From Bacillales bacterium (GTDB taxonomy: Bacteria > Bacillota_I > Bacilli_A > RF39 > UBA660), in the NCBI GenBank assembly GCA_016282415.1, contig JAEEKO010000002.1:1-40557 (forward strand): DNA of 40,557 bases, in the 5' to 3' direction. Positions within the stretch are counted from its first letter, which is position 1. Every line of letters begins with the position of its first letter. The notes under the pieces are model-generated. The model ran no database searches and was not told where the DNA came from. It worked only from the letters and a program-made list of their open reading frames with translations. This document shows positions 4,836 to 40,557 of the stretch, in pieces. Made by a program: the position numbers and the translations under genes.

Positions 4836-5741
4836 CTAATCTTCTTTATTCAAACTCTTTTCATGTCTTTTTATTAAATCTCTTAATTTTATAAAATGAT
4901 GATTAACTCCGGACTTAGAAATCTTATAATCCGTTTCTAAAGAGATAATATCTGCTAATTCTTGATAACTACTCTCCGGATATTTCTTACGATAATCCAT
5001 AACTACCTTCGTTTTTTCATCCAATAAATCAATTAAATCATTTTCTTCTAAATAAATGATATCATCTAATTGTTTTAAACCATTTTGCGTAGTTTTTTCT
5101 TGATTAGCTAACTCACAATTATTTAAACGATTAACCATATTTTTATGGTCACGATAAATTCTGATGTCTTCATAATAAAATAAACTGTTCGTAACTTTAA
5201 TTAACTTTAAAAAGTCACTAATCATTTCTGCACTTTTAATATAAACCATATATTTATTAGTACGTTTAATTATTTTAGATAAAATATTATATTCTTTTAA
5301 TAAACCCGTAATTATCATGGCTTCTTTTTTCATTGGTAATAAAAATTCTAAGTGATAACTACCTTTTTTCGGATCATTAATACTCCCACATGCTAAGAAA
5401 GTACCCATTAAATAAGCAATTTTTTCTTCATCACTATCTAAATTAGTAGTATTTAAAGTATTAATAATATCTTGGTTCTTTTCCATAATTTTAATAATAT
5501 ATAATTGTTTAATTCTAAATCTTTTTTGATTACGAACAATAATGGAAGGATTAACATTAAACAACTTTTTAACAAAGATATAAACTAATTTAGCAACTTT
5601 AGCATTTTCAATTGTAAAAGTAATCTCTTTTTTACTAATAGCAGCATCATATAAAAATAACGCTTTTAAAGTGGTTAATGCTTCTATCTTATTGAAATCA
5701 TAAGCTACTATTTCTTCTTTAATCATCGTTGTAAAAGTCAT
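4836..5741 (-). CDS. whiA: DNA-binding sporulation/cell-division regulator WhiA
   Basis: 301 aa. Degenerate LAGLIDADG-like core (LMGTFLACGSINDPKKGSYHLEF) plus a C-terminal HTH (SYQELADIISLETDYKISKSGVNHHFIKL). Length and layout typical of WhiA. Confidence 0.85.
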   Translation of the reverse strand: MTFTTMIKEEIVAYDFNKIEALTTLKALFLYDAAISKKEITFTIENAKVAKLVYIFVKKLFNVNPSIIVRNQKRFRIKQLYIIKIMEKNQDIINTLNTTNLDSDEEKIAYLMGTFLACGSINDPKKGSYHLEFLLPMKKEAMIITGLLKEYNILSKIIKRTNKYMVYIKSAEMISDFLKLIKVTNSLFYYEDIRIYRDHKNMVNRLNNCELANQEKTTQNGLKQLDDIIYLEENDLIDLLDEKTKVVMDYRKKYPESSYQELADIISLETDYKISKSGVNHHFIKLRDLIKRHEKSLNKED

Positions 5742-5837
5742 ATAACCACTCCTCTCTTTTCAAGAATAACATGTTTTATCTTGGTTGTAAAATTATATTT
5801 TAAATAGTATAATCAAATTAAGAATAGAGGTGTTTTA

Positions 5838-6791
5838 ATGAGTCTTCGTTTAAAAGACAGTGTTCGTAAAAAATTATATATGATTATCGTTATTGCAATC
5901 TTAGCGTTTATTGGTCTGTTTTCAATTAAATCAATAGTAACAATGATTAAACAAAAAACTAATATTGAATACAAACTAGAACATCATGGTTATAGTACTA
6001 AAGAAATTAAAATCTTAAAAAGGAATTACAATAAAAAAGAATTAACTAAGTTATTAGATAAAGAAGCTGACAAAAATATCCCATTATTAATCGAAGAAAA
6101 ATATTATATTGCTAAAAACTTAGATAAGTATTTAGATTATTTAAAAGCTAATCCAAACACTCCAGTATCTAAAGTTATTAGTTATATTAATACTCGCGCT
6201 AACGAAAAATGGTATACTGATCCAAAAGAAGCTGATCTTAGTAAAGGTAAACTTCTATTAGTTAATAAGTTTAATAAATTAAATGAAGATTACACCCCAG
6301 AATTAGTTAATGTATCAAATTGGTATGCTTATGGTGAAAATAAATTAACTCAAGAAGCTTATGAAGCATTTATTCAAATGTTTAATGGCGCTAAAGATAG
6401 TGGTACTAAGATTGTTGCGACATCTTGTTATCGTTCTTATGAAAATCAAAAAAGAATATATGATAAAGATGTTTACAAATATGGTGAAGAAATAGCTGAC
6501 GAAAGTGTTGCTAAACCAGGTTTTTCCGAACATCAAACCGGACTTGCTATCGATTTATTAGAACCGGGTTATAACTTAAATAACTTCCATGAAAGTACCG
6601 CTTATAGTTGGTTACTAGATAATGCCCATAAATATGGCTTTATATTAAGATATCCAAGTGATAAAGAAGATATTACTGGATATAGTTATGAATCATGGCA
6701 TTTTAGATATGTTGGTGTAGAAGTTGCTACCAAAATTCATAATGAAAACATTACTTACGATGAATATTATGCTTATTATTTAAATAAATAA
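5838..6791 (+). CDS. Membrane-anchored D-alanyl-D-alanine carboxypeptidase, M15B/VanY family
   Basis: N-terminal TM segment. Zn-ligand motifs SEHQTGLAIDL (H-x6-D) and ESWHFRYVG (E-x2-H). Confidence 0.8.
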   Translation: MSLRLKDSVRKKLYMIIVIAILAFIGLFSIKSIVTMIKQKTNIEYKLEHHGYSTKEIKILKRNYNKKELTKLLDKEADKNIPLLIEEKYYIAKNLDKYLDYLKANPNTPVSKVISYINTRANEKWYTDPKEADLSKGKLLLVNKFNKLNEDYTPELVNVSNWYAYGENKLTQEAYEAFIQMFNGAKDSGTKIVATSCYRSYENQKRIYDKDVYKYGEEIADESVAKPGFSEHQTGLAIDLLEPGYNLNNFHESTAYSWLLDNAHKYGFILRYPSDKEDITGYSYESWHFRYVGVEVATKIHNENITYDEYYAYYLNK

Positions 6792-11907: not shown

Positions 11908-12621
11908 CTATTCCACCTCTTCTATTAATTTAGCGTGTAATACCACTCTTTTAGTATTATTACCAATACAACTTGATAAAGTTATTATTTGTTTTGTATT
12001 CGTTACATCAACATTGTAATTATATTTAGATCTTAATTTTAATTTTTTTATAAACTCTTGATAATCACCATCATTAAAACTAGTTTTTAAATAATAATCT
12101 TCTGTTTCAATCTCGTATACTGAAAAAACTTCATAAAGATAAGTACCATTTTCGGTAATTAAGGTTATTTTACCATTCCAGTCTTTTTTTAATACTGTTG
12201 GTAAGGTTCCAAACATCGAACCATCACGCATATTATGACCATAGACTATAACGTTTTTATCATTACCATCAAGCTTATTTCGATAATCTATAAAGATCCA
12301 ACCAGCACGGTTTTTATTTTTATCAAAATTATGACTTAAATAATAGTCATTATTAGTTGTTTTTAAGGTTACATAGTCAATATTAGTACCATCAACGCTT
12401 AAATACCCAGCTACATCACTATTACGTTCTTTTAGGGCTTTAAAATCGATTTTATAAGCACTATCTTCCTCTTTGATTACTAACTTATTTATTTCCTTTT
12501 TTAATTTATTATTAGTATTAGTATCTACTTTCCACATCACAATATTAAATGATGCATAACCAATACCAATTAAAGATGCTACAAATAATAAAAGCGCCCC
12601 AATATTTTTAAGTTTTTTCAT
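11908..12621 (-). CDS. srtB: Class B sortase
   Basis: N-terminal TM anchor. VIVYGHNMRDGSMFGTL and TLSSC catalytic motifs. DYYLSHNFDKNKN region typical of SrtB. Confidence 0.85.
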   Translation of the reverse strand: MKKLKNIGALLLFVASLIGIGYASFNIVMWKVDTNTNNKLKKEINKLVIKEEDSAYKIDFKALKERNSDVAGYLSVDGTNIDYVTLKTTNNDYYLSHNFDKNKNRAGWIFIDYRNKLDGNDKNVIVYGHNMRDGSMFGTLPTVLKKDWNGKITLITENGTYLYEVFSVYEIETEDYYLKTSFNDGDYQEFIKKLKLRSKYNYNVDVTNTKQIITLSSCIGNNTKRVVLHAKLIEEVE

Positions 12622-12864
12622 ATTTCCATCACTAATTTAATTATACAATAAAAGACAAGAATGGTTAATTATTATCTTGTCTCTTTACACTGTTACTATA
12701 AATTAATTCATTATCATGCCATTCTCATTCAGTATAATCAACCCAGCTATTATTTTGTCGTTCAACCGCTAACTGCATTCCAAGAACTTCGTAATCTTGC
12801 TTTTTATCATCACTGTTTTTCCTTCTTTTCGCTGTTAGTTAATTATTCTAACATAAACTTTTTC

Positions 12865-12893
12865 AAAAAAAAAGTAGGATTTTTCATCCTACT
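12865..12893 (-). terminator. Terminator after the NPKTG surface-protein gene
   Basis: Stem AGTAGGAT / ATCCTACT with loop TTTTC, then T9 on the minus strand. The stop codon 12889..12891 lies inside the stem. Confidence 0.7.
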
Positions 12894-13002
12894 TACTATT
12901 TAAATTATTTTTTTTAAGAAATAATCCCGTACTAATTAATCCAACAACACTTAATATTAAAATACCTACATATAATAGGACACTATCACCAGTTTTTGGA
13001 TT
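12889..13002 (-). other. Cell-wall sorting signal (NPKTG codons at 12988..13002, plus TM segment and basic tail)
   Basis: The minus strand reads AAT AAT CCA AAA ACT GGT directly. Confidence 0.8.
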
Positions 13003-13851
13003 ATTAGTAGTAGTTGGTGCTACATCAGCAGCTTCCTCAACTACATTACCAACAACCGCATATTCACTTAAATGATCTAAAGTACCTTCTAAATATTCAC
13101 CATTTACTTTAAATTCAATAGGTGTTTGTGTTTTGAAATTATCATTAGTATCTACATAAATGAACTTAAATGAATTATATTTTTTCATTTCATCAGTCAT
13201 TTTAATTTTGATATTGAATGGTCCTTCATGAATTAAGAAACCATTTTCATCTTCAACCTCTATTTGAAGGAATGCTAATAAAGTTCCTTCACCTTTAACC
13301 GCATTATTTATGCCGTTAAACATAGCATCATACAAATCCTTAGGAATACCTAAATCATTTAAAGCAACATCATTTAATCCATAGAAGTCCATAATATTTA
13401 ATTTAAAGGTATGTCCATTTTCTTCTTTAAAAGACACTGAGTTACCATTATCATCCGTAACCGCATAGTCTTTATCTTTTACTACTTCATGTTGTCCTGG
13501 ATCTTGTGGTCCCTGATCAATTACTGGTGCATTACAAGCTGGAATAACAACATTACTTAATTTCTTTTCGTTTTCCCCAGCTTCATTTGATACCGTAATA
13601 TTAATTATTGTTTCATTTTCATAACCTAAAACAAATTCAACACTATAACTACCATTATTTATTTCACCAGTTTTGAAACCAATGTCAGCATTATGGTCAT
13701 CAAATAATGATACCGTAGCATCATGCCCAGTTTGAGAACCACTTACTGTTAAAACACAACTTTCGTTGTTAAAATTGGTATTTACATCAGCAGCACTAAC
13801 GATCATTGGTGCTAGTAATAACAATGGAGTTAAATATAATAATTTTTTCAT
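12889..13851 (-). CDS. Cell-wall-anchored surface protein with a SrtB-type NPKTG sorting signal
   Basis: Signal peptide MKKLLYLTPLLLLAPMIVSA. C-terminus NPKTG-DSVLLYVGILILSVVGLISTGLFL-KKNN (motif, hydrophobic segment, basic tail). Confidence 0.8.
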   Translation of the reverse strand: MKKLLYLTPLLLLAPMIVSAADVNTNFNNESCVLTVSGSQTGHDATVSLFDDHNADIGFKTGEINNGSYSVEFVLGYENETIINITVSNEAGENEKKLSNVVIPACNAPVIDQGPQDPGQHEVVKDKDYAVTDDNGNSVSFKEENGHTFKLNIMDFYGLNDVALNDLGIPKDLYDAMFNGINNAVKGEGTLLAFLQIEVEDENGFLIHEGPFNIKIKMTDEMKKYNSFKFIYVDTNDNFKTQTPIEFKVNGEYLEGTLDHLSEYAVVGNVVEEAADVAPTTTNNPKTGDSVLLYVGILILSVVGLISTGLFLKKNNLNSK

Positions 13852-15743
13852 TATTCGCCACCTCCATTATCATTGTTAGGCGCCGGTTCCATTGGCGTTC
13901 TAATTTCTAACACTTTACCTTCCCCAATACCATAAGTTAATGATGGTATTTCATTCTCATTAATTTCACCATTTACTAAGAATAAAGCAATTTTCTTAAT
14001 ATTTTTAGCATCAGCATTTTCTTTATCAATTAAAACAATTTGATGCATTATTGCGGCATTATCAATAAATGAGAAATAATCTAATTGTTTAATTGGAATT
14101 TGATGTGAATTATCAAATCTAATATAATCACGATCAACTACTGTATTTAATGTTCTATTTCCAAAATAGTCATTGAAATGTTCAGCAGTAACATAACCTT
14201 CATTTAATACATCACTATTTAAATCAAATACTTTAGTACCTACAATCATACCAGTATTATCATAGAATAATGCTAAAGCATATGGTGTGAAGTTTTTATT
14301 ACGTTCATATCCGTTTTCGGATTGATTCCAATTACCTAAACTAATTTCATCATCATTCATTGAATCAACTACCATAATTGAATTAAGTTGATCTTCAGAA
14401 TTATCTTCAGTATAGAAAGCAGATAATACACCACGATATTGAACAGAATAGAATCTACCAGCATCACATGTATTATTGTTGTTTGCTTCTTGGCAATTTC
14501 TTCCATCAGCATCTACTTCAATAAGTTCACCGCTGAATGCAAAACGATTAATTTTTATTTTTACACTATCTTCAAAAATATTATTACCATTATTAGTTAA
14601 TGTTAATTCAACTACCATTTCATTTTGATAGAAAGAACTAAATGTAATTTCTAATGTTCCAATATTTTCATCATAAGAAGCAGTATAACCATAACCAGAT
14701 CCAGTAACATCATCAAATTCTAATACTGGTCCACAGTTATTTACTTTATTATCATTAATAATTTCATTTGGTACTTTATTATATAACGTTAATACTTTAG
14801 TACCATAGAATAATTCTTCAATTTCATCTTCTAAACTATATGGGTTAAATCCAATAGTTAAGTCTTGATCATTAAAATTATTAACGTCCCCTTCTCCATC
14901 AAATCCAGCATAATTTGGAACAAACACTTTTACATTATTATATCCAAATAATAAACTACCAATAGATAATTCTTTGAAGTCTTTATGAATTACAACATAA
15001 CATGCTAATGCATCATCATCACAAGCAGTTGTAAATAAATTATCATTACGACCATCCGCAAAAGTTACTGCTTCAGCTCGCATTTCTTTAAATAAATCAT
15101 AGTTATCTTGATTAAATTGGAAGATTAAAGCACCACCATTATTCATCATTGATTCTGGTAATACTAAATCACCATCCATATAATCTTCAACTAAAATTTG
15201 TGATTCACTATAGTTATTGGTATTAAATAAGCTTTGATTATCATATTGATTACCAGTGTAATTCATATATGAAATGTTAATTTTATCTTTTTTAGCATAT
15301 TCAATATTAACTTCTACCTTATTTTGTTCAGTAGCATTTTCTGGAATAAAGAATTCATAGATATTATCATCATGGAAATCAGCCATAGATGAGAATGTCT
15401 TTTCTCTAAAGAATGCTCCTTGTTCTGAACCAGCAATGAATCCTAAAACTAGGTCAACATCGTTAAATTTAACAGTGAAGTTTTTAACATAGTACCCAGC
15501 CTCACTACTTAGGGTAATGCGAGCTATGTAATTACTCTTTTCTACTCCTGGACTAGTAAAAACATCATCCGGATTCAAATCACTAACGTTCAAATCGTAG
15601 TAGCCATGGCTCACCTCACCACTTTTTGTAACATTTATCAAGTCTTCAGGATGTTCAGTATTTAAAGCATAGACATGGAGAAACGTAATAAAACCTGCAA
15701 CACCCAACAGAATAAATAAAAAATTCCTTATTTTCTTCTTCAT
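13851..15743 (-). CDS. Secreted protein, 630 aa, no sorting signal
   Basis: Signal peptide MKKKIRNFLFILLGVAGFITFLHVYA. The stop overlaps the start of the downstream gene (TAATG). The C-terminal codons NGGGE form that gene's GGAGGTGG RBS. Confidence 0.7.
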   Translation of the reverse strand: MKKKIRNFLFILLGVAGFITFLHVYALNTEHPEDLINVTKSGEVSHGYYDLNVSDLNPDDVFTSPGVEKSNYIARITLSSEAGYYVKNFTVKFNDVDLVLGFIAGSEQGAFFREKTFSSMADFHDDNIYEFFIPENATEQNKVEVNIEYAKKDKINISYMNYTGNQYDNQSLFNTNNYSESQILVEDYMDGDLVLPESMMNNGGALIFQFNQDNYDLFKEMRAEAVTFADGRNDNLFTTACDDDALACYVVIHKDFKELSIGSLLFGYNNVKVFVPNYAGFDGEGDVNNFNDQDLTIGFNPYSLEDEIEELFYGTKVLTLYNKVPNEIINDNKVNNCGPVLEFDDVTGSGYGYTASYDENIGTLEITFSSFYQNEMVVELTLTNNGNNIFEDSVKIKINRFAFSGELIEVDADGRNCQEANNNNTCDAGRFYSVQYRGVLSAFYTEDNSEDQLNSIMVVDSMNDDEISLGNWNQSENGYERNKNFTPYALALFYDNTGMIVGTKVFDLNSDVLNEGYVTAEHFNDYFGNRTLNTVVDRDYIRFDNSHQIPIKQLDYFSFIDNAAIMHQIVLIDKENADAKNIKKIALFLVNGEINENEIPSLTYGIGEGKVLEIRTPMEPAPNNDNGGGE

Positions 15744-16756: not shown

Positions 16757-17113
16757 TGGTGGAGCAGAGGAGAATTGAACTCCTGTCCAAACTACATGAT
16801 CATACAACGTTTACAAGTTTGACTAGAATTTAATCTTACTTATTAACCGGATCTAGTGCACCTATTAATAAGCTAGTTTAGATAAAAATTCATTATTTAA
16901 CTCTAAACGATTAAATAATATAACCCTTGTGAATGATCCTCAGTAATTCCCCAAAGGTATAGGAATTAAAGAAGAGCTCCAAGCCTTATATTAGGCAAAA
17001 GAAGGAGCAAAAGCAATATTTCTATTGTCGTTTATATTTAAAAAATAGATTTAAAGTATCCCTACTACTTGTGGTCATATGTCACCATAGCCTGTCGAAA
17101 CCAAGTCTGCCCC
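16757..17113 (-). ncRNA. ssrA: tmRNA (SsrA)
   Basis: 5' GGGGCAGACTTGGTTTCGACAGG pairs with 3' ...CTGCTCCACCA and includes the G3-U70 alanine identity pair. T-arm AGGAG-TTCAATT-CTCCT. Internal tag ORF ends ...NRNIAFAPSFA-TAA. Confidence 0.9.
16991..17032 (-). other. tmRNA tag reading frame (resume codon not determined)
   Basis: AAC GAC AAT AGA AAT ATT GCT TTT GCT CCT TCT TTT GCC TAA. The other two frames carry stops here. Confidence 0.6.
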
Positions 17114-32173: not shown

Positions 32174-32650
32174 TTATAATTCAATATATTTTTCAAACCA
32201 AGTTTGTAATGTACTACTATCTTTGTAATATTGTAAGTCTTCATCACTTTGAGCATCTAAGTAAGCTTTTAATTTACCTTTTTTGAAAATCATCATTGAT
32301 GGAGCATATTTAACTTCGTCTTTTAAATCAGTTTGACTAAATTCCTTATATTCAATACGATAAACTGTTATTTTATTTTTAACAACAAAATCAACAGCTT
32401 TTGAACCAAATACAACACATGAAGTACAACCATCTAAAGTTAAATATAAAATGAAATTTTCTTTCTTATCAACTAATTCTTCATAGCGATCATGTTTAAT
32501 ATCAATAATTGACATATTTTCATAATACTTTTCTTCTAATCTAAATGGTTTATTATTAATTGCTTTAATTCCGAAGAATAAACCACAACCGCCAATAATA
32601 ACTACTAGCAATACAACGACTACTACTATTCCTAATACTTTCTTATTCAT
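32174..32650 (-). CDS. Membrane-anchored thioredoxin-fold protein with CxxC (CTSC)
   Basis: N-terminal TM. ILYLTLDGCTSCVVFG active-site-like motif. The overall layout resembles streptococcal bacteriocin-accessory thioredoxins. Confidence 0.6.
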   Translation of the reverse strand: MNKKVLGIVVVVVLLVVIIGGCGLFFGIKAINNKPFRLEEKYYENMSIIDIKHDRYEELVDKKENFILYLTLDGCTSCVVFGSKAVDFVVKNKITVYRIEYKEFSQTDLKDEVKYAPSMMIFKKGKLKAYLDAQSDEDLQYYKDSSTLQTWFEKYIEL

Positions 32651-33306
32651 TATTTAACCTCCGTTAATGTTTTGAAATCAATATTATGATATGGAACTTT
32701 CCAAAAATCATAAGTTCCTTTATCATTCTTAACTTCTACTTTATTCTTACCTTCATAATACCAAAAACCACCAACATTGTAAATATTATTCTCATCCCAA
32801 CCTAATGAAACTAATAAACCTTTTGTCATGCCGGCATAACCACCGCCACCACACATCAAGAAAATGTTTTTATCTTTAGGAAATAAGTATTCTAAAATTG
32901 CCATTGATTCTTCATACATTGGTTGATATTTACCATTACGATCCATTTTAAATAAAGTTTTACCAGCGTAAGTATTTCCTACTGCTTCTGGTAAGCCCGT
33001 AACTTCAATTAAGTATGGTAATGGTACAATTTCAAAGCCATTAACAAATCCGGATAAATAACGATCACCACCAATTTTTTCATAACTAGCAGGATCTTCT
33101 AACATTCTCATATCACGATAAACACTATCAGTTCTTCCTAAATATTTATCAATTGTTTCTTCGTTGATATTCTTATCAATACCAAGTTCTCCCCTTTGAC
33201 CTCCAGTAACTTCTGGTTTAGGTAAATCACTTACTTTCTTATTAGTACATCCTACTAATAATAATGAGACTACAATAAGTAGTAAAATATATTTTGTTTT
33301 CTTCAT
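32650..33306 (-). CDS. Rhodanese-like lipoprotein
   Basis: Lipobox LLLVG-C. Rhodanese-like C-terminal pattern IFLMCGGGGYAGMTKGLLVSLGWDENNIYNVGGFWYY. TAATG overlap with the thioredoxin-like gene. Confidence 0.5.
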   Translation of the reverse strand: MKKTKYILLLIVVSLLLVGCTNKKVSDLPKPEVTGGQRGELGIDKNINEETIDKYLGRTDSVYRDMRMLEDPASYEKIGGDRYLSGFVNGFEIVPLPYLIEVTGLPEAVGNTYAGKTLFKMDRNGKYQPMYEESMAILEYLFPKDKNIFLMCGGGGYAGMTKGLLVSLGWDENNIYNVGGFWYYEGKNKVEVKNDKGTYDFWKVPYHNIDFKTLTEVK

Positions 33307-33339
33307 CTTACACCACCATATATTAATTATATCGTTCCA

Positions 33340-33375
33340 TAAAAAAAATTACAAGTAATTAATAAGCTTGTAATT
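33340..33375 (-). terminator. Terminator overlapping the end of the 116-aa secreted protein gene
   Basis: Stem AATTACAAG / CTTGTAATT with an 11-nt loop, then T8 on the minus strand. Confidence 0.55.
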
Positions 33376-33709
33376 CATTAACAACACTTTCTAATTCATC
33401 TGGTGTCACATTATTAATAACTGTCGTCATTATTTCTTGTAAATCATTATTATCTAAACATATATCATTAAAAAAGTAACTAGTTTTATTTTCACTACAA
33501 GGATAGTTACCAAGATCGATTTCCGTACCAACCTTTTTACTTAATGAATTAGTACGATTTTGAAATGTATCTTCATCAACTTCCCTAATTTCAAAATTAT
33601 GCCCAAATACTTTTTCTTTAAAATCACTAACACTTAACCCATAAGTATCACTACTATTTAAGATAACCGCCCCTATTATTACTATTAATAAAAAAATAAT
33701 TCTTTTCAT
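33359..33709 (-). CDS. Small secreted protein (116 aa from Met12 of the track ORF)
   Basis: MKRIIFLLIVIIGAVILNSSDTYG signal peptide behind GAGGTGG. Confidence 0.55.
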   Translation of the reverse strand: MKRIIFLLIVIIGAVILNSSDTYGLSVSDFKEKVFGHNFEIREVDEDTFQNRTNSLSKKVGTEIDLGNYPCSENKTSYFFNDICLDNNDLQEIMTTVINNVTPDELESVVNELQAY

Positions 33710-33831
33710 AGCCACCTCAAACTTGCTACTTATTATATACAAAAATAACGAAATTACAAGTTTTTTTATTGCTTAATAAAAATTATTATTTTATAATAAA
33801 AAACAATTACATTTTACAAGGAGAAATTAAT

Positions 33832-34578
33832 ATGCGTTTAATTAAGATTGACGAAAAGAAAAACAAAGTCTATGTTTATAATGTTAAAGCTAACGTTGAA
33901 AAACTAGATGAATTAAGAGATGAAATTGCTATTAATTGTGGTATGATTACAAGCTTTTTTAAATATAGAAAGCATAATCCTGAAAAACCTATTGATAAAA
34001 GAGTAATTATCGATACTTATGAATATGAAGGCGAATTTGAAAGCATTGAAAATGGAATCCATGATAGCGGTGTACTATATACATGGAAAGGATTCCGATT
34101 TGCGTCTACAGATTTAACAAAGGATATTGCTGCTTTTACTGCTATGTATAAAAATAAACCAGTTCATTTTTATGAAGATGATATTGAATTATTATTAGCA
34201 CTAAGTGGAAATAAAGAATATCCAACAAAAGAAGAAATTGAAAAGAAAAATAATGATAAATTAAAAAATAGATATAAAACAATTCATGATACAATTGATT
34301 TTTACAATTTTGAAGAAAAAGAAGTGACTAAAGAAAAACTTATTGATTCAATGCTATCTAGTGATATAGATAATATGCATGAATTAATTAAAGCAAATAA
34401 AAAAGCTGATGAACTAAGAGTGTTAAAAGATCAAAACGATTATATTAAAGAAGTAGCTAAATTAATTAGTTTTAAATGTATTAATAGTATGGACTTAGAT
34501 ACATATAAAGCTGCAATTAATTTAAGTGAAGGTGGATATCGTCTTAAACCAAAGAATAATAAAAACAAGACTAGTTAG
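33832..34578 (+). CDS. Hypothetical cytoplasmic protein, 248 aa
   Basis: ATG 33832 behind AAGGAG (8-nt spacer). The upstream part of the track ORF is AT-rich leader sequence. Confidence 0.6.
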   Translation: MRLIKIDEKKNKVYVYNVKANVEKLDELRDEIAINCGMITSFFKYRKHNPEKPIDKRVIIDTYEYEGEFESIENGIHDSGVLYTWKGFRFASTDLTKDIAAFTAMYKNKPVHFYEDDIELLLALSGNKEYPTKEEIEKKNNDKLKNRYKTIHDTIDFYNFEEKEVTKEKLIDSMLSSDIDNMHELIKANKKADELRVLKDQNDYIKEVAKLISFKCINSMDLDTYKAAINLSEGGYRLKPKNNKNKTS

Positions 34579-34589
34579 TCTTGTTTTTT
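34561..34589. terminator. Bidirectional terminator containing both convergent stop codons
   Basis: AAAAACAAGACTA-GT-TAGTCTTGTTTTT. TAG (34576..34578, + gene) and TAA (34577..34575, - gene) overlap inside the stem apex. Confidence 0.75.
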
Positions 34590-36608
34590 ATATACTTCAT
34601 TAATTAATAATACAGTACATAAAATGATTATTAAAATACCACCAAATAATAAGTATAACCAGAATGGTACTTGACTCCATACATCTTTTAATGCATGTAT
34701 TAAGTTCAATACGCTAAATATAACACCAATTATAAAATATGAAGTTGTATATTTCTTTTGTAATAAACTATAAATTATTAATCCTAAACATGTAACCCCA
34801 GCTAAAATACTTAAATAGATTCCTGGTGAATAAATATCAAAGAAAACAATGAATGAAATAAAGATAATAAATAATACATGTTTTAATAAACTATTCTTCT
34901 TATCAATTGGGAAGATTGTCATAAATAAGATAAAGATTAAATATAAACTTACTAATAATGAAGAAATATCATCATTTAAATTAATTTGACGAATAAATAC
35001 CGAGAATGGCAATACAGAATAAATTGTTAAGAAATACTTATTAAATTTACTTTTAAATGGTAATAAGTAATTTATAAATGCTACTAATAAGCATAATAAT
35101 GATCCTATAGTTAAAGATAAATTAAATGGTTGAAGTCCAATGAAGATACTTGATAATAACAACATATAAATCATTAATGCAAAAACACTTAATACCTTAT
35201 AACCAACACTCTTATTGCCTTTAATAACAGTATAAATATATAATAAGTAACTAATTAATAATCCAACTAGTTGAATAATATTACTAGATACTGAAATACC
35301 ACATGAAACTAGGTTACCAAAAATATTAAAACAAATTAGAGTAATACATAGTGATAAATCAATTCCTTTAACCCCTTCATCTTTATCAATGAAATGCATT
35401 ATAAATAATACACCACTAAGAATAACTAAATAATTTCTTAAAAGAATATCGATTACATAATCATCTATTAAATTAATAACACTAGCACCAACAATTATAA
35501 TAACGATTGGTCGAATATAATCATAAAATACTGTTTTACTACCAATACTATTTAAAACATTTACTAATAATAAATTAATTGCTGCTAATAAAATGGTTAT
35601 GGCAGATGAACAAACATTAAAAATCACTAATATGAAGGCTGTAATTAATCCAATTATATTATTTGCTTTATAAATAACTTCATCATTCTTTAAATTAAAG
35701 ATTTTAACCATTAAATAATAGAATAAATAAACAAATAATGATAATCCAACTGCTAAACAATCATAACCATCTAGTGGTGATTGCAATAATGAACCCGTAG
35801 CAATTGCAACCATATAAGATGCAATTACATTTAATACTACAAATAATTTACGACGATCCTTAATCGTAAAGATTAAAGAACTAATTAATGATAATACTGA
35901 TGCTATTACCATTACAAATGAATAATCTAATATAATTATTTCAAAGAATAATAATAAATAGAATAAATAGTTAGCAATAACTGCTACTGCATAAATAAAG
36001 CCTTTTCTTGGTGCAAAAATATGAAGTAAGAAATAGAAAATACTCATATATAACATTGCATATTCAAAATCTAATTCAAAATGATTAAATATGAATGGTG
36101 CAATTAAGAAGAAAGCAATACTTCCAACCGTTTTAGCAAATCTTGATTTAAATAATAAATCATAAATAAACATAAAGATGGTTACTAAACCAAATATTGT
36201 TGCCATAACAATTGATGCACCTTCACCACCAAAGCTAAACCACTCACCAAATGTTTCAAAATAACCAATACCAACTAAGGTAAAAACCATAAATAAGAGT
36301 GATATTAATAAATAGCTCTTAGTAGTACTTCTGATTTTGATAAATAAAGCACTAACAATTGATAGTAACATAAATACTACACTAATTAATGCAAGTAATA
36401 ATACTTTAAAAGTATCACCAATAAATTCATAATTACTTGTTGCTAAGATAATACCAGCAACTAATACCATAAATACACCTAATTTTAAAAAGATATCAAT
36501 TCTTTTAATATCAGGACTTACTTCCTCTTTTTTTATTTCTGGTAATTTTGTTCCACAATCTTTACAAAACTTACCAAATCCTTCTTTACTACATTTAGGA
36601 CAAATCAT
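34575..36608 (-). CDS. Polytopic membrane protein (~18-20 TM) with an N-terminal zinc ribbon
   Basis: MICPKCSKEGFGKFCKDCGTKL (CxxC-x11-CxxC), followed by almost uninterrupted hydrophobic helices over 650 aa. Confidence 0.75.
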   Translation of the reverse strand: MICPKCSKEGFGKFCKDCGTKLPEIKKEEVSPDIKRIDIFLKLGVFMVLVAGIILATSNYEFIGDTFKVLLLALISVVFMLLSIVSALFIKIRSTTKSYLLISLLFMVFTLVGIGYFETFGEWFSFGGEGASIVMATIFGLVTIFMFIYDLLFKSRFAKTVGSIAFFLIAPFIFNHFELDFEYAMLYMSIFYFLLHIFAPRKGFIYAVAVIANYLFYLLLFFEIIILDYSFVMVIASVLSLISSLIFTIKDRRKLFVVLNVIASYMVAIATGSLLQSPLDGYDCLAVGLSLFVYLFYYLMVKIFNLKNDEVIYKANNIIGLITAFILVIFNVCSSAITILLAAINLLLVNVLNSIGSKTVFYDYIRPIVIIIVGASVINLIDDYVIDILLRNYLVILSGVLFIMHFIDKDEGVKGIDLSLCITLICFNIFGNLVSCGISVSSNIIQLVGLLISYLLYIYTVIKGNKSVGYKVLSVFALMIYMLLLSSIFIGLQPFNLSLTIGSLLCLLVAFINYLLPFKSKFNKYFLTIYSVLPFSVFIRQINLNDDISSLLVSLYLIFILFMTIFPIDKKNSLLKHVLFIIFISFIVFFDIYSPGIYLSILAGVTCLGLIIYSLLQKKYTTSYFIIGVIFSVLNLIHALKDVWSQVPFWLYLLFGGILIIILCTVLLINEVYKKQD

Positions 36609-36619
36609 ATCATTACCTC

Positions 36620-37009
36620 CTAATTAACTTTATATTCAATTTTTTCAGCTTCTTCAATATTTAAATCTGTTTTAGCATTAATCTTAAATTCATCATTCTT
36701 TTTTAAATTCCGATTAACAATATTATTTACTTTAATAATTTTATTATTATTTTTATCATAGAAAATTACATCAATGCTCTTAACGGTTTTAGTTTCGTCC
36801 GCTGTAACGGTTGCGGTAAAATCGTAGAATTTACCTTCTTTTTTTATTTCAACATCAGTAATTATTAAACCATCAACAAACGTTTTACCACGATTCATAT
36901 AATTATGAACCCCAATTAGTATAATAAATCCTGCTAACAGCACTGCTAGTATAATCATAACGATTGTTAATATTTTATTACGTCCTGAATTTATTTTTTT
37001 GTTTTTCAT
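36620..37009 (-). CDS. Single-pass membrane protein with a small beta-rich ectodomain (paralog of 37096..37500)
   Basis: TM ILTIVMIILAVLLAGFIILIGV, then ...ITDVEIKKEG..FTATVTAD...IDVIFYDKNNNKI...L.KNDEFKI.AKTD. 11-nt gap with an AGGAGG RBS to the downstream 677-aa gene. Confidence 0.65.
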   Translation of the reverse strand: MKNKKINSGRNKILTIVMIILAVLLAGFIILIGVHNYMNRGKTFVDGLIITDVEIKKEGKFYDFTATVTADETKTVKSIDVIFYDKNNNKIIKVNNIVNRNLKKNDEFKINAKTDLNIEEAEKIEYKVN

Positions 37010-37067
37010 CTATTATCACCTACTATAATTATACTATTTTTTAAATAATAAGCAATAATCTTTGACA

Positions 37068-37097
37068 ATAAAAAAATTGCAATTTCTTGCAATTTTT
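37068..37097 (-). terminator. Terminator after the 134-aa gene
   Basis: 11-bp stem AAAAATTGCAA / TTGCAATTTTT with loop TTTC. The stop 37096..37098 lies at the stem edge. Confidence 0.65.
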
Positions 37098-37500
37098 ATT
37101 TTGTTAGTTCATAGGTAATATTATGCATATCTGAAATATCTTCATCTGTACTTGCTTTAATACTTATTGAATCATTTGGTATTACATTTCGACCAACATA
37201 ACCAATAAGTGTTACTATAACTTTATTATTTTTATCTAAAATATTTAATTTAATACCATCGATTGTTTCACTTTCTTTAACGGTTAATGTTCCAGTGTAA
37301 GTAGTTACCCCTTCCTCCGTTAAAACATGAATATCGCTGATAGTTATATTATCTGTAACACTGACATCATCAAATTTTGGATCTCCCATTCCAAGAATAG
37401 AATAAGCAATAAATGCCGCTAATGCAATCATTAAGACGCCAATGCCAATAACCCATTTACGATTTTCTTCACTTTTTATAATCGACATAAATTTTCTCAT
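37096..37500 (-). CDS. Single-pass membrane protein with a small beta-rich ectodomain, translationally coupled to the giant Gly-rich gene
   Basis: TM WVIGIGVLMIALAAFIAYSILG, then ...ISDIHVLTEEG..YTGTLTVKE...IKLNILDKNNKVI...VIPNDSISIKASTD. Its ATG overlaps the upstream TGA (ATGA at 37497..37500). Confidence 0.65.
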   Translation of the reverse strand: MRKFMSIIKSEENRKWVIGIGVLMIALAAFIAYSILGMGDPKFDDVSVTDNITISDIHVLTEEGVTTYTGTLTVKESETIDGIKLNILDKNNKVIVTLIGYVGRNVIPNDSISIKASTDEDISDMHNITYELTK

Positions 37501-40500
37501 GAGTTTTCCCCACTTACTTCTTTAGATATTTCTTCAATAATTTGTATTATTTTACTAACACTATTTTTCTTACCTAAACCATTTTCAATATCGCATGTTA
37601 TTTCATATTCACCAATTTCTAATTCATTGATATTTGAAATAACATCATCACCATTCTTACAACTAAATGTTACTCCTGATTTAGTAGATGTATATCCCGT
37701 AGGTAGTGTTATATCACTACCTACAGTTATTTCATCATCTAACTCAAGTTCAATACTTGGAGTTTCTCGATCAATACGATTAACCGTAAATGAACTTGTT
37801 GATACGACATTATTATTTTCGTCTAATGAACGAGCAAGAATAGTTACGTTTTCTTCAACTGTAATTTCACCTTGATATTCAAACCAAGTTTCACCTAAAT
37901 CTAAACTATACTCACTAGTATATCCTTTTGGATAACTAATATTAATTTTTTTAGATTCTGCATAACCAGTATTATCAATTGTAATATTTGGAGTTTCAAC
38001 GATAATCTTAGGTGCTGACTTAGGTGAAGATTTACCACCACGTCTTAATTCGAGTTCAATAGTAGTAAATGATACTGTACCAGCTCCTCCGTTACCACGG
38101 TTATTAGTTGCTGATCCTCCAACAACTGAAGTTGTACCTTCACTAGTAATAGAATTACTAAATACGTTAATTGATCCACCACCAGATGATCCCGGAGTAC
38201 CATAGCCTTTATGATCATATGCTGATGTACCATTAGCTTGCAATGTTCCAGTATTATTAAATTCACTAGCATAAATAACCAATAATCCACCTGTACCATT
38301 GCTTCCATCTGGAATACCAGAACTTAAATTTTTAGATTGACCACCTGGGTTACCAACACCACCAGAGTAGCCATCACTTCTACCACCAGAACCACCATAT
38401 TGGTTACCACTTGTTGCAATTGATTCATAGGCTGATCCACCACCAGTTCCTCCTGAATAACTTGTACCAGCTCCTCCATCTCCAGGCGTTACTGAATATG
38501 ATCCACCACCAGATCCACCACCACCTGTAGCACGACTAGAAACTGTAGAGCCAGCAGAACCAGGATTACCACTTTTATCACCAGAAGATTTCTTAGAAAC
38601 TCCTCCAGCTCCGCCTACAGCAGGAACTACTTCAAATGTATCATCACTATTTTTCCATAGATATACATTATCTCCATAAGCATATGCACCATGCGAATTA
38701 TCAATTGTTCCGGTATTATTTAATGTACCAGTAACAAATAGAACAAATCCTTTTGGTCCACCATATCGGTTATAGAATGGTTCTATCTTGGCATTATTTG
38801 TTAAATTTCCATTTACTTTAACAATTACCGTATTGGTAGCCATACGATCGCTGCCTAAACCATTACCAACGTCATTTTCATCACCAAACTTAGTATTAGT
38901 AGTAATAGTTTGATCTCCCTCTAATACATATAGGTGAACTGGGTAAGTAACCGTTTCACTATCACCTTCAACAACAAAATCATAATATCCATCGTTTAAA
39001 CTAGGGTCATTTAATATTTCCAAAATACTGTCCCCTGATTTTGATGTTCTTTCAAAAGTTCTTTCGGCAATTGGTAATTCATCAAATGATGCACTACCAG
39101 TACCGCCAAGACTACGCTTATTAGTTGCGGATCCACCGGCTACATTTACGTTTCCTTCTTTAATTAGTGTTTTAGCAAATACATTGATGGAACCACCACC
39201 AGAAGAACCTCCAGTACCATAACTATTATGTTCATATGCGGCAGTACCAGTTGCTTTTAATAAACCATTACTTTCAAATTTATCCGCATAAATCATTAAT
39301 AATCCACCAGTACCACTAACAATATGTCCATAATCAGTTTGTGGATTTACATACTCTCCACCTGGGTTACCAACACCACTACCTAAACCAGTACCGGTTC
39401 CACCCTGGCCACCATAATTGCTACCAGATGTTGTGGTCGCTTGCCATGCAGATCCTCCTCCAGTTCCACCGGAATAAGAGGTTGCAGATCCACCATCACC
39501 AGGTTTTGCGGAAGATGATCCACCACCTGATGCTCCACCACCTAGCGCACGACTTGATATTGTTGATCCATCCTTACCAGCTACTTGATATTTATCACCA
39601 GAAGTTTTCCTAGAAATTCCTCCAGCTCCACCTACAGCAGGAACAGTAGCAAATGTACCATTATCATATTTATAAATATATACATTATCACCATATGCAT
39701 ACGCACCATGAGAATTATCTATAGTACCATCATTAGTAAGTTTACCAGTTACATAAACCATAAATCCTTTTGGCCCACCATATTGTTCATGATATACAGG
39801 TCCCACTGTAACTCCTGATTTAATTTTTAAATCACCATTAAATTTGACTATGACCATATTAGTAGCCATTTTATCTTCAGTTGTACCTGACGCACAATCA
39901 GATAAAGATCCAAATTGGATATCGCTTTTAATTGATTGATTACCATTAATAACAATTAAATGCACTGGATATGTAACAGTTTCATTATCACCATTAACAA
40001 TGAAATTATAGTATCCTGTATTTAAGTTACTATCATCTAAAATATCGATAATACTATCACCAGTTTTATTAATTTTCTCAGTTGAAACAACATGATTATC
40101 ATCATATGAATCTATTTCTTCTTGAATAATACTAGTAAAATCATAATATTGACCATCAATTATTTTACCAATATTTACAGTTCCAAGACCTCCATTACCA
40201 CCTCTACTGGTATTAGATGTCGTTTTTAGTGTTCCACCTGCAACTGATATATCACCTTTTAAATCATTATATACACTCAAGTATGAAACACTAGGTGAAA
40301 TCAAATTAATAGCATTATTTGCAAAGATATTAACGGATCCACCACCAGAACCACCACCAATGTAAGTAGCAGAAGCGGCTTCATGACCTTTAGCAAGAAT
40401 TGTCCCATTATTTTCATATTCATCAGAATAAATAATAAGTAATCCACCAGTACCTCCAGCAGGGTTACCGGCTCCTGCTCCAGCACCAGTTCCATAACCA

Positions 40501-40557
40501 GTTCCACCAGCACCTCCATTACTTGGTATATTTGTAAATGAAGTACTATTACGAATA
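37497..40557 (-). CDS. Very large glycine-rich modular extracellular protein (5' end beyond the window; at least 1019 codons visible)
   Basis: The track ORF start (TTG 40304) is internal. The same frame stays open to 40557 (...NGGAGGTGYGTGAGAGAGNPAGGTGGLLIIYSDEY...GGGSGGGSVNIFANNAIN-LISPS...). Two full ~340-360-aa modules plus a partial third, then a non-Gly C-terminal region. Confidence 0.8.
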   Translation of the reverse strand, partial: IRNSTSFTNIPSNGGAGGTGYGTGAGAGAGNPAGGTGGLLIIYSDEYENNGTILAKGHEAASATYIGGGSGGGSVNIFANNAINLISPSVSYLSVYNDLKGDISVAGGTLKTTSNTSRGGNGGLGTVNIGKIIDGQYYDFTSIIQEEIDSYDDNHVVSTEKINKTGDSIIDILDDSNLNTGYYNFIVNGDNETVTYPVHLIVINGNQSIKSDIQFGSLSDCASGTTEDKMATNMVIVKFNGDLKIKSGVTVGPVYHEQYGGPKGFMVYVTGKLTNDGTIDNSHGAYAYGDNVYIYKYDNGTFATVPAVGGAGGISRKTSGDKYQVAGKDGSTISSRALGGGASGGGSSSAKPGDGGSATSYSGGTGGGSAWQATTTSGSNYGGQGGTGTGLGSGVGNPGGEYVNPQTDYGHIVSGTGGLLMIYADKFESNGLLKATGTAAYEHNSYGTGGSSGGGSINVFAKTLIKEGNVNVAGGSATNKRSLGGTGSASFDELPIAERTFERTSKSGDSILEILNDPSLNDGYYDFVVEGDSETVTYPVHLYVLEGDQTITTNTKFGDENDVGNGLGSDRMATNTVIVKVNGNLTNNAKIEPFYNRYGGPKGFVLFVTGTLNNTGTIDNSHGAYAYGDNVYLWKNSDDTFEVVPAVGGAGGVSKKSSGDKSGNPGSAGSTVSSRATGGGGSGGGSYSVTPGDGGAGTSYSGGTGGGSAYESIATSGNQYGGSGGRSDGYSGGVGNPGGQSKNLSSGIPDGSNGTGGLLVIYASEFNNTGTLQANGTSAYDHKGYGTPGSSGGGSINVFSNSITSEGTTSVVGGSATNNRGNGGAGTVSFTTIELELRRGGKSSPKSAPKIIVETPNITIDNTGYAESKKINISYPKGYTSEYSLDLGETWFEYQGEITVEENVTILARSLDENNNVVSTSSFTVNRIDRETPSIELELDDEITVGSDITLPTGYTSTKSGVTFSCKNGDDVISNINELEIGEYEITCDIENGLGKKNSVSKIIQIIEEISKEVSGENS
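38064..39083 (-). repeat. Gly-rich module B (residues ~408-747 of the track ORF)
   Basis: Shares ordered blocks with module A: GDSILEILND, ETVTYPVHL, GGPKGF, GTIDNSHGAYAYGDNVY, VPAVGGAGG, PGDGG..TSYSGGTGGGSA, GVGNPGG, GTGGLLVIYA, GSSGGGSINVF, GGSATN. Confidence 0.8.
39084..40166 (-). repeat. Gly-rich module A (residues ~47-407)
   Basis: Same block order as module B. Repeat offset 339-342 aa. Confidence 0.8.
40167..40557 (-). repeat. Gly-rich module 0 (C-terminal part only, truncated by the window edge)
   Basis: GNPAGGTGGLLIIYSDEY...GGGSGGGSVNIF...GGNGGLGTVNIG aligns with the ends of modules A and B. Confidence 0.7.

Follow-up and report, generated by a model that had tools for sequence, protein, structure and literature searches.

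What kind of protein is encoded at the end of contig JAEEKO010000002.1 of a Bacillales bacterium (assembly GCA_016282415.1), where a giant glycine-rich reading frame runs off the assembled DNA, and does it belong to a family that has already been described? The stretch analyzed here, which we call the window, is the whole NCBI contig of 40,557 bp, and the gene in question lies on its minus strand (37497..40556), where it encodes 1019 residues and a stop codon, with 0 internal stops up to the window edge. An earlier, sequence-only reading of this DNA had described a giant glycine-rich protein made of tandem modules, which it could assign to no named family and took for a probable surface fibre or adhesin. 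Our analysis defines the module as a discrete domain of ~330 residues, and the best explanation, which we favour with some reserve, is a surface adhesin in which a conserved glycine-rich scaffold carries variable loops and in which the module array is swapped between strains.

As the window is the complete contig, the giant gene is truncated by the contig end and not by the choice of window, and the assembly plausibly broke inside the repeats. The TTG at 40304 is merely the first start codon available to the open reading frame (ORF) lister and not the true start, as had been proposed from the sequence, and the stop-free translation bears out the further proposals that the frame is open to the contig edge, that the protein has at least 1019 residues and that its N-terminus is absent. 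The orthologue from the same species (locus L081) was called at 3454 residues and possesses four modules; 3334 of its codons fall within the locus, and its first 120 residues lie outside. Stops or frameshifts upstream, as would be expected of a pseudogene, were not found: internal stops number 0 in the window frame and 0 in the 3334 readable orthologue codons, and a pseudogene is ruled out. Searched with a hidden Markov model (HMM) of the module family, the visible protein has the following layout:

40140..40556, minus strand: partial module 0, the C-terminal ~40% of a module, truncated by the contig end (family HMM, residues 2–139 against profile positions 204–335)
40062..40139, minus strand: inter-module linker FTSIIQEEIDSYDDNHVVSTEKINKT, between the HMM envelopes
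39054..40061, minus strand: module A, residues 166–501 (HMM score 340, full profile length)
38043..39035, minus strand: module B, residues 508–838, the modelled unit (HMM score 355)
38001..38042, minus strand: Ser/Pro/Lys linker (GGKSSPKSAPK), the site of the identity change relative to L081
37767..38000, minus strand: C-terminal domain 1, a CHB_HEX_C-like beta-sandwich (Pfam PF03174, E 0.0014, under cut-off)
37533..37766, minus strand: C-terminal domain 2 (pattern D..TP.I...G.Y.ITC), with no family match of its own

The family profile thus confirms the tandem modules, with two complete copies and part of a third, and all the motif blocks listed in the sequence-only reading are present as conserved family columns; its layout stood, while its exact module edges, in which linkers had been included, were off by about 10–35 residues. 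The Gly-poor C-terminal region is likewise real (~175 residues). Many loci retain domain 1 at the C-terminal end of the giant subtype, and domain 2, whose sequence pattern we read as probably Ig-like, is conserved alongside it, with 56% identity to the relatives at loci L001 and L006. Module A shares 58% identity with module B (BLASTP E 3e-104), the figure being 79% in the family-conserved columns and 43% in the remaining ones. Glycine makes up 18.2% of the visible 1019 residues, GGxGG occurs 11 times versus 1.1 expected by shuffling (maximum 6 in 1000 shuffles), and across 86 family modules the Gly autocorrelation at a lag of three residues is 0.148 versus −0.009 ± 0.017 in shuffles. Tandem Repeats Finder misses the ~1-kb module period, since its periods stop at 500 and the protein sequences of the modules share only 58% identity, and the repeat search in the giant gene returned only units of 9–15 nucleotides (nt). 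Nothing pointed to a diversity-generating retroelement, as no reverse-transcriptase family turned up in those window ORFs that were scanned with Pfam and no template-like repeat was seen beyond the 9–15-nt units. The visible 1019 residues, which end in ...EEISKEVSGENS, contain no LPXTG-like motif, in agreement with the sequence-only reading, and no hydrophobic segment (maximum Kyte–Doolittle 19-residue mean 1.0); the giant protein therefore lacks the C-terminal LPXTG, hydrophobic stretch and basic tail that define the sortase-anchored class.

None of Pfam, PHROGs and NCBIfam matched the module, even with the threshold relaxed to E ≤ 10, nothing above cut-off was found in these libraries for the giant protein and its three downstream neighbours, and PDB sequences returned chance matches only, with a single module as well as with a 15-sequence profile. 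These negatives support the original view that the module fits no named family, and no full-module match to a characterized family was found. It is nevertheless widespread. A first protein search yielded 231 homologues, 120 of them listed; all 120 carry one to three module copies, and related loci in GTDB carry one to four. Over 1.84 billion cluster representatives (50% identity clusters), a profile search retrieved 2021 clusters with E ≤ 1e-3, of which 1515 reached E ≤ 1e-10 and 701 reached E ≤ 1e-30. Among GTDB species representatives, 241 stretches encode the module, often with several loci per genome; all come from uncultured metagenome-assembled genomes (MAGs) labelled Bacilli, Tenericutes, Erysipelotrichales or Clostridia, with a few bearing Muribaculaceae labels.

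Family alignments, among them a conservation map of 92 modules, show conserved motifs (VPA.G..GG, R.TGGGGSG, GTSYSGG.GGG, NGGAGG, GGAGNPGG, NGTGGLL and GGSSGGGSINIF) and, between them, spacers of 14–168, 9–32, 14–55 and 5–70 residues. Gly and turn Asn of the beta-helix type predominate at the positions invariant in 15 diverse modules, which also include Tyr, Lys, Arg, Ser and Thr but never Asp, Glu or His, and “NSHGA” alternates with “MTARGA” in many members. The lack of an invariant acidic residue or His and this alternation together point to a scaffold rather than a catalytic site.

Two further observations concern the spread of the family. At the Clostridia MAG loci L041, L051, L052, L054, L068, L069, L072 and L075, short module genes are often broken into two to three overlapping frames, which could reflect phase variation or sequencing errors in GGN-rich DNA, and short module genes also form tandem arrays in Clostridia (three copies in L037, two in L050 and L071). 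A prepilin-type protein of 1723 residues (P0083) with three divergent modules (HMM scores about 80 each) is encoded by Minisyncoccus archaeophilus, a cultured episymbiotic member of the Patescibacteria, and offers a possible experimental handle on the module family.

The fold of module B was predicted with AlphaFold2 on a 61-sequence alignment, giving a predicted local distance difference test score (pLDDT) of 93.8 and a predicted template modelling score (pTM) of 0.92. In the model a small N-terminal beta unit (residues 5–58) is accompanied by a “long strand, turn, short strand” pattern recurring every ~27–37 residues at 77–145 and 259–333, while residues 146–258, apart from isolated one-residue bridges, are nearly devoid of regular secondary structure and yet reach a pLDDT of 84–98. 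The strands VIVKVNGNLTNN, FVLFVTGTLNNTGTI, LLVIYASEFNNTGTL and SINVFSNSITSEGT resemble beta-solenoid rungs, which is our reading of the pattern and not a computed classification. A solenoid-like core with a glycine-rich part free of regular secondary structure agrees with the AlphaFold2 model, and the beta-solenoid idea of the sequence-only reading is in keeping with it. The predicted high confidence of the glycine region without secondary structure, together with the period-3 Gly, would also fit a candidate polyglycine-II geometry.

Structural searches of module B with Foldseek found no PDB neighbour at E ≤ 0.001. Behind the first entry, which is taken up below, stood beta-helix proteins (HpmA, tapirin) at E about 1 and above (all >0.9). 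Against BFVD, giant-virus “collagen-like” proteins reached E 2e-7 to 8e-5, but with a TM score of about 0.3 and a root-mean-square deviation of 10–19 Å, and these matches are treated as compositional or partial similarity; an entry for the phage adhesin gp38 ranked 9th (E 0.14). The best BFVD matches were A0A2I2L380 (Orpheovirus), S4VX73 (Pandoravirus) and A0A7S6NY19 (Bathycoccus virus), of the “collagen-like”/PA14 kind (E 2e-7 to 2.5e-3, TM score about 0.3).

Polyproline/polyglycine-II bundle domains are known from few proteins: snow-flea antifreeze protein, Obg, acetophenone carboxylase, gp38 and ALK/LTK (bioRxiv 10.1101/2023.11.25.568672). The sequence-only reading had linked the module with the glycine-rich domain of ALK/LTK (PF12810), which is likewise glycine-rich and extracellular with GGxGG-type motifs and which co-occurs with the module in three homologues (P0006, P0013 and P0064). 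This link did not hold. PF12810 has no match to the whole protein or to module B at E ≤ 10, and in the same scan it scored E 8e-29 to 9e-48 for C-terminal domains of the three homologues; hhalign of 92 modules versus 9 PF12810 regions gave a probability of 0.2% (E 0.28, 33 columns); and neither ALK nor LTK figures in the 50 PDB Foldseek matches listed. Membership was rejected, and PF12810 is an architectural neighbour in the same proteins that belongs to a different family. Its genuine copies (P0006 residues 1114–1371, P0013 residues 927–1159, P0064 residues 578–870) form a separate C-terminal domain beside the module, and these three proteins thus combine two distinct glycine-rich domains in one chain.

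The gp38 adhesins of T2/T6/S16/PP01-type phages (Pfam GP38; PDB 9v85 and the S16 structure; PMC3157838, PMC12892980) offer a different comparison. The core of gp38 is built from conserved glycine-rich motifs, and its hypervariable segments set the receptor (PMC3157838), and in the module glycine-rich motifs also alternate with hypervariable, length-variable segments. Like the viral module homologues, gp38 is a stand-alone protein encoded beside the tail-fibre gene, a likeness that does not apply to the bacterial gene of the window. The module differs from gp38 in being larger (~330 residues), in adding a beta-solenoid-like core and an N-terminal beta unit, and in occurring as tandem copies within surface proteins of Gram-positive-type lineages, and no GP38 sequence-profile match was found in the Pfam, PHROG or PDB searches. 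We regard the parallel as a design analogy; membership is unsupported.

Beta-helix adhesins (the TPS domain of FHA/HpmA, autotransporter passengers and Caldicellulosiruptor tapirins) resemble the module in their repeated strand-turn rungs, whose turns carry Asn or Gly, and in being displayed at the surface on long fibres. Their Foldseek matches to the module reach only E about 1–6, however, and the module has no TPS or autotransporter secretion signal and possesses a large glycine-rich insertion that has no counterpart in them. As for parallel beta-helix enzymes (PbH1/pectate-lyase-like), no Pfam match was found and the 15 diverse modules lack any invariant Asp, Glu or His.

The module is also encoded by nine contigs of uncultured phages in IMG/VR; GenBank phages gave no match to it. 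On seven of the nine it forms a stand-alone frame of 349–672 residues that begins at the module, without an upstream carrier domain, and on the other two, L086 and L094, it is spread across several frames. In four cases (L087, L088, L090 and L093) the module gene follows immediately on tail-fibre genes, with PHROG E-values as low as 3e-41, in regions that encode tape-measure, tail and portal proteins, and in L089 it is flanked by genes for an endolysin and a virion structural protein.

The bacterial carriers are more varied. A canonical prepilin N-terminus (MKKGFTLIELL...) is present in 28 of the 120 homologues listed, and many more start with a KGITLIA pilin-like N-terminus; other carriers have TasA/camelysin-like signal sequences or PASTA with a transmembrane helix, membrane-anchored giants of 2000–3450 residues are among them, and the domains accompanying the module include Big_2, cadherin-like, CHB_HEX_C, BNR, RCC1 and Listeria–Bacteroides repeats. 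Judged by these sequences, the carriers appear to be extracytoplasmic display scaffolds, and the large surface protein of the sequence-only reading is supported. Modules grafted onto pilins have been shown experimentally to mediate adhesion (PMC8179133), and the 28 prepilin-type homologues, which are more distant from the window protein, resemble the modular type IV pilins PilB/PilC of Streptococcus sanguinis (PMC8179133) in carrying a functional module behind a canonical GFTLIE pilin N-terminus. The grafted module here is an unannotated domain, neither vWA nor a lectin, and relatives of the window subtype differ from modular pilins in having a basic tail, a transmembrane anchor and a long Ig-like stalk with no prepilin signal.

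Relatives that share the pair of C-terminal domains with the window protein have ORFs of 2000–3075 residues. Their order is an N-terminal cytoplasmic segment (PASTA-like or Lys-rich), one transmembrane helix, many Ig-like domains and one to four modules. The relative at locus L085, which is 67% identical to the stalk of the same-species orthologue, starts with MANNKRKKTISKKVSFDYK, continues into the transmembrane helix YILLVLLLSLFIPSFY and then the stalk, and has an AGGAGG ribosome-binding site upstream. Its N-terminus fits the 120 residues missing from the 3454-residue orthologue, and the window protein is therefore most likely a signal-anchored giant and not a pilin. Exact look-up of the neighbours for the 5′ end found no record of the 134-residue protein encoded downstream and the 129-residue one only on a 1-kb contig, and the 3454-residue orthologue was not among the results of a final protein search for the N-terminus.

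Two peculiarities of these relatives were seen in passing. In many (L001 41–5761; the N-termini of L006, L011, L027 and L034; P0247) a PASTA-like domain precedes the single transmembrane helix, within a Lys-rich segment, which would place it on the cytoplasmic side, unusual for PASTA. At L001, the closest full-coverage homologue, the giant gene is split at 5698–5932 into ORFs of 1906 and 1269 residues with the break inside a domain, either a frameshift or an assembly error.

The comparison with L081 brings out how the array varies. This locus was reached via a 93%-identical homologue of the 134-residue neighbour and has the same gene order as the window (giant, 134, 129, 677, ... UvrB, L9, DnaB). 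From window position ~38033 downstream the two are 97.1% identical over 10,950 nt (blastn, starting at reverse-complement position 2525), whereas upstream of it, in the modules, identity drops to ~70% in nucleotides and 49% in protein. The break falls in the SPK linker that follows module B. The four modules of L081 are 62–97% identical among themselves and 49–52% identical to those of the window, and they number four versus at least three in the window protein. It thus appears to be the module array, and not the C-terminal cap or the flanks, that differs completely between two strains of one species, and with flanks at 97% and modules at ~49% protein identity the array looks like an exchanged cassette. 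The linker at the breakpoint is a short SAPK repeat, with four copies in L081 (9400–9470) and SSPKSAPK in the window (~38010–38040), and is a possible recombination site.

In our proposal, the window would hold the last 1019 residues of a giant cell-surface protein, probably of 2000–3500 residues, from an uncultured low-GC gut/rumen Bacillota bacterium. Judged by its closest relatives, the portion lost beyond the contig would comprise a short basic cytoplasmic tail, one transmembrane helix holding the protein in the membrane and a stalk of Ig-like, fn3 and CHB_HEX_C-like domains, about 1500 residues in all; this stalk would bear a distal array of at least three ~330-residue modules, capped by two small domains of which the first is CHB_HEX_C-like. 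Each module would consist of an N-terminal beta unit and a short beta-solenoid-like core with “hhhhhh..h.N.G.h” rungs, and between the rungs a ~110-residue glycine-rich insertion would combine GGxGG-type motifs with spacers highly variable in length and sequence. The glycine motifs may form a rigid scaffold, possibly of short polyglycine-II helices, that presents the spacers as ligand-binding loops, so that the module would be a receptor-binding (adhesin) unit with the design logic of phage gp38; swapping of the array as a cassette between strains would then change specificity or antigenicity. The anatomy of the module, its family and carriers, the phage contexts, the divergence between strains and the conserved gene pair are results of the analysis; we infer that the protein is exposed at the surface in the window organism and binds a ligand, and likewise the nature of that ligand, the polyglycine-II geometry and the role of the small partner proteins encoded downstream.

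Several points weigh against this proposal. The N-terminus of the window protein lies beyond the contig, and its membrane anchoring, though most likely, is drawn from relatives. Differences between modules A and B are spread across the whole module (58%, 61% and 52% identity by thirds) and are not limited to the glycine-rich spacers. The top PDB Foldseek entry is indeed gp38 of phage PP01 (9v85_C), but at E 0.38 and a TM score of 0.15 it is not significant. The cassette comparison covers two strains, whose divergence might also be an artefact, and a beta-helix encoded beside phage tail-fibre genes could equally be a depolymerase.

A bolder form of the proposal, to which we lend tentative and clearly lesser credence, would see in the module a new fold class that combines a beta-solenoid with a polyglycine-II-type scaffold and serves as a portable receptor-binding domain common to phages, in tail-fibre tip proteins, and to their Gram-positive-type gut or rumen hosts, in pilins, TasA-like fibres and giant anchored stalks; strains would swap whole arrays and so alter what they bind or evade recognition, and the giant form would have a dedicated small partner. 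In the domain libraries, structure collections and literature searched we came across no description of the domain family, the apparent fold, the sharing between phage and host or the small partner; the general kind, a variable surface adhesin or glycine-rich scaffold, is already known.

Among the competing explanations, a structural or self-associating envelope fibre (coat, matrix or aggregation) fares best, although we consider it improbable. The modules would then be rigid spacers or homotypic contacts without a specific external ligand, and the very large size, the tandem modules, the long Ig-like stalk and the several paralogues per genome all suit such a role, as do the TasA-like carriers, which point to matrix fibres. 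Yet phages encode the lone module beside their tail fibres, which is a better fit to receptor recognition, and the exchange of the array between strains that are 97% identical is suggestive of selection for specificity or antigenicity, not of a neutral spacer.

Slightly less probable still is an enzyme, namely a polysaccharide depolymerase, either lyase or hydrolase, with a parallel beta-helix like that of phage tail spikes, which bacteria would display to break down glycans from host or diet and phages would employ to cut polymers of the capsule or wall. The module has no enzyme family match in Pfam, NCBIfam or PHROGs at E ≤ 10, its 15 diverse members share no invariant Asp, Glu or His, the His of NSHGA being replaced in many (MTARGA), and two to four tandem copies are unusual for a catalytic domain; these points have to be set against the beta-helix-like rungs of the model, the beta-helix proteins HpmA and tapirin in the PDB Foldseek list (all at E > 0.9), the position of the phage homologues in tail modules beside tail fibres, where depolymerase spikes are common, and the glycan-related domains (CHB_HEX_C, BNR) of some bacterial carriers.

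The least likely explanation, that the strain variability is an assembler chimera joining a paralogous array at the C-terminal domains or the SAPK linker, is suggested by a gene family that is multi-copy in related genomes, a contig that stops within repeats and an identity break that coincides exactly with a low-complexity linker, but it sits poorly with a reading frame that is unbroken across the junction, a domain order as in relatives and paralogue C-terminal domains in other genomes that are only about 35–56% identical, which leaves little sequence for a false join.

Returning to the adhesin proposal, the genes downstream of the giant gene were examined as a possible part of the same system:

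37096..37500, minus strand: small partner 1, 134 residues, with an N-terminal transmembrane helix and a seven-strand beta-sandwich; its ATG overlaps the TGA of the giant gene (ATGA)
36620..37009, minus strand: small partner 2, 129 residues, a paralogue of partner 1 (26% identity, same cluster, same HMM)
34575..36608, minus strand: protein of 677 residues with an N-terminal zinc ribbon and many hydrophobic segments, by its sequence; syntenic in L081 and L082
34561..34588, minus strand: terminator-like hairpin closing the string giant/134/129/677, by consensus match; the sole such site in 33300–37600

The sequence-only reading had proposed a system with coupled downstream genes, which stands for the 134- and 129-residue proteins with the giant subtype and fails for the 677-residue protein. 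A single-transmembrane homologue of 129–145 residues lies directly 3′ of the giant subtype in 20 loci (19 and the window), and in the loci examined the small partner was never found behind pilin-type or short forms. The 677-residue protein was rejected as a conserved member, as it is syntenic in L081 and L082 (same species) and absent from the other 80 loci; the conserved unit is the giant protein with the small partner. AlphaFold2 predicts for partner 1 a helix at 11–36 and strands at 47–133 (pLDDT 68), and Foldseek returned only generic Ig-like sandwiches for it (DUF1425, ApaG; E ≥ 5e-3), which give no lead to a function. One or two such translationally coupled, membrane-anchored beta-sandwich proteins would act as dedicated partners of the giant subtype, and our guess is that the small partner docks the C-terminal cap to the membrane or else aids export or folding.

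The remainder of the contig is the ordinary chromosome of a low-GC (~28%) bacterium, with genes for EF-G, S7, S12, WhiA, TrpRS, UvrA, UvrB, DnaB, L9 and tmRNA, and it also encodes a VanY-type D-Ala-D-Ala carboxypeptidase and a sortase. The sortase gene (Pfam Sortase, E 2.8e-14) lies within 11908–15743 on the minus strand beside ORFs of 320 and 630 residues that have no family match and could be sortase substrates. At 32174–33306 (minus strand) an ORF of 218 residues whose N-terminus resembles that of a lipoprotein (LLLVGC) precedes the gene for a membrane-anchored thioredoxin-like protein (PF00085, E 5.6e-6), a pair that is syntenic in L081. The tmRNA gene at 16757–17113 encodes the tag peptide DNRNIAFAPSFA.

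The practical gains would be a new domain-family definition and a testable adhesin hypothesis. The module is also a possible engineerable binding scaffold. With more than 1500 clusters at 50% identity and a confident model, the family would be a new and abundant example of glycine-rich domains of the polyglycine-II bundle type, and its definition would give a name to a great many surface proteins of uncultured gut and rumen Bacillota that are now only “hypothetical”. Its occurrence at phage tail-fibre loci as well as on pilins and giant stalks, together with the complete difference in the array between 97%-identical strains, makes the module a candidate determinant of host, partner or phage specificity in organisms that are not yet cultivable.

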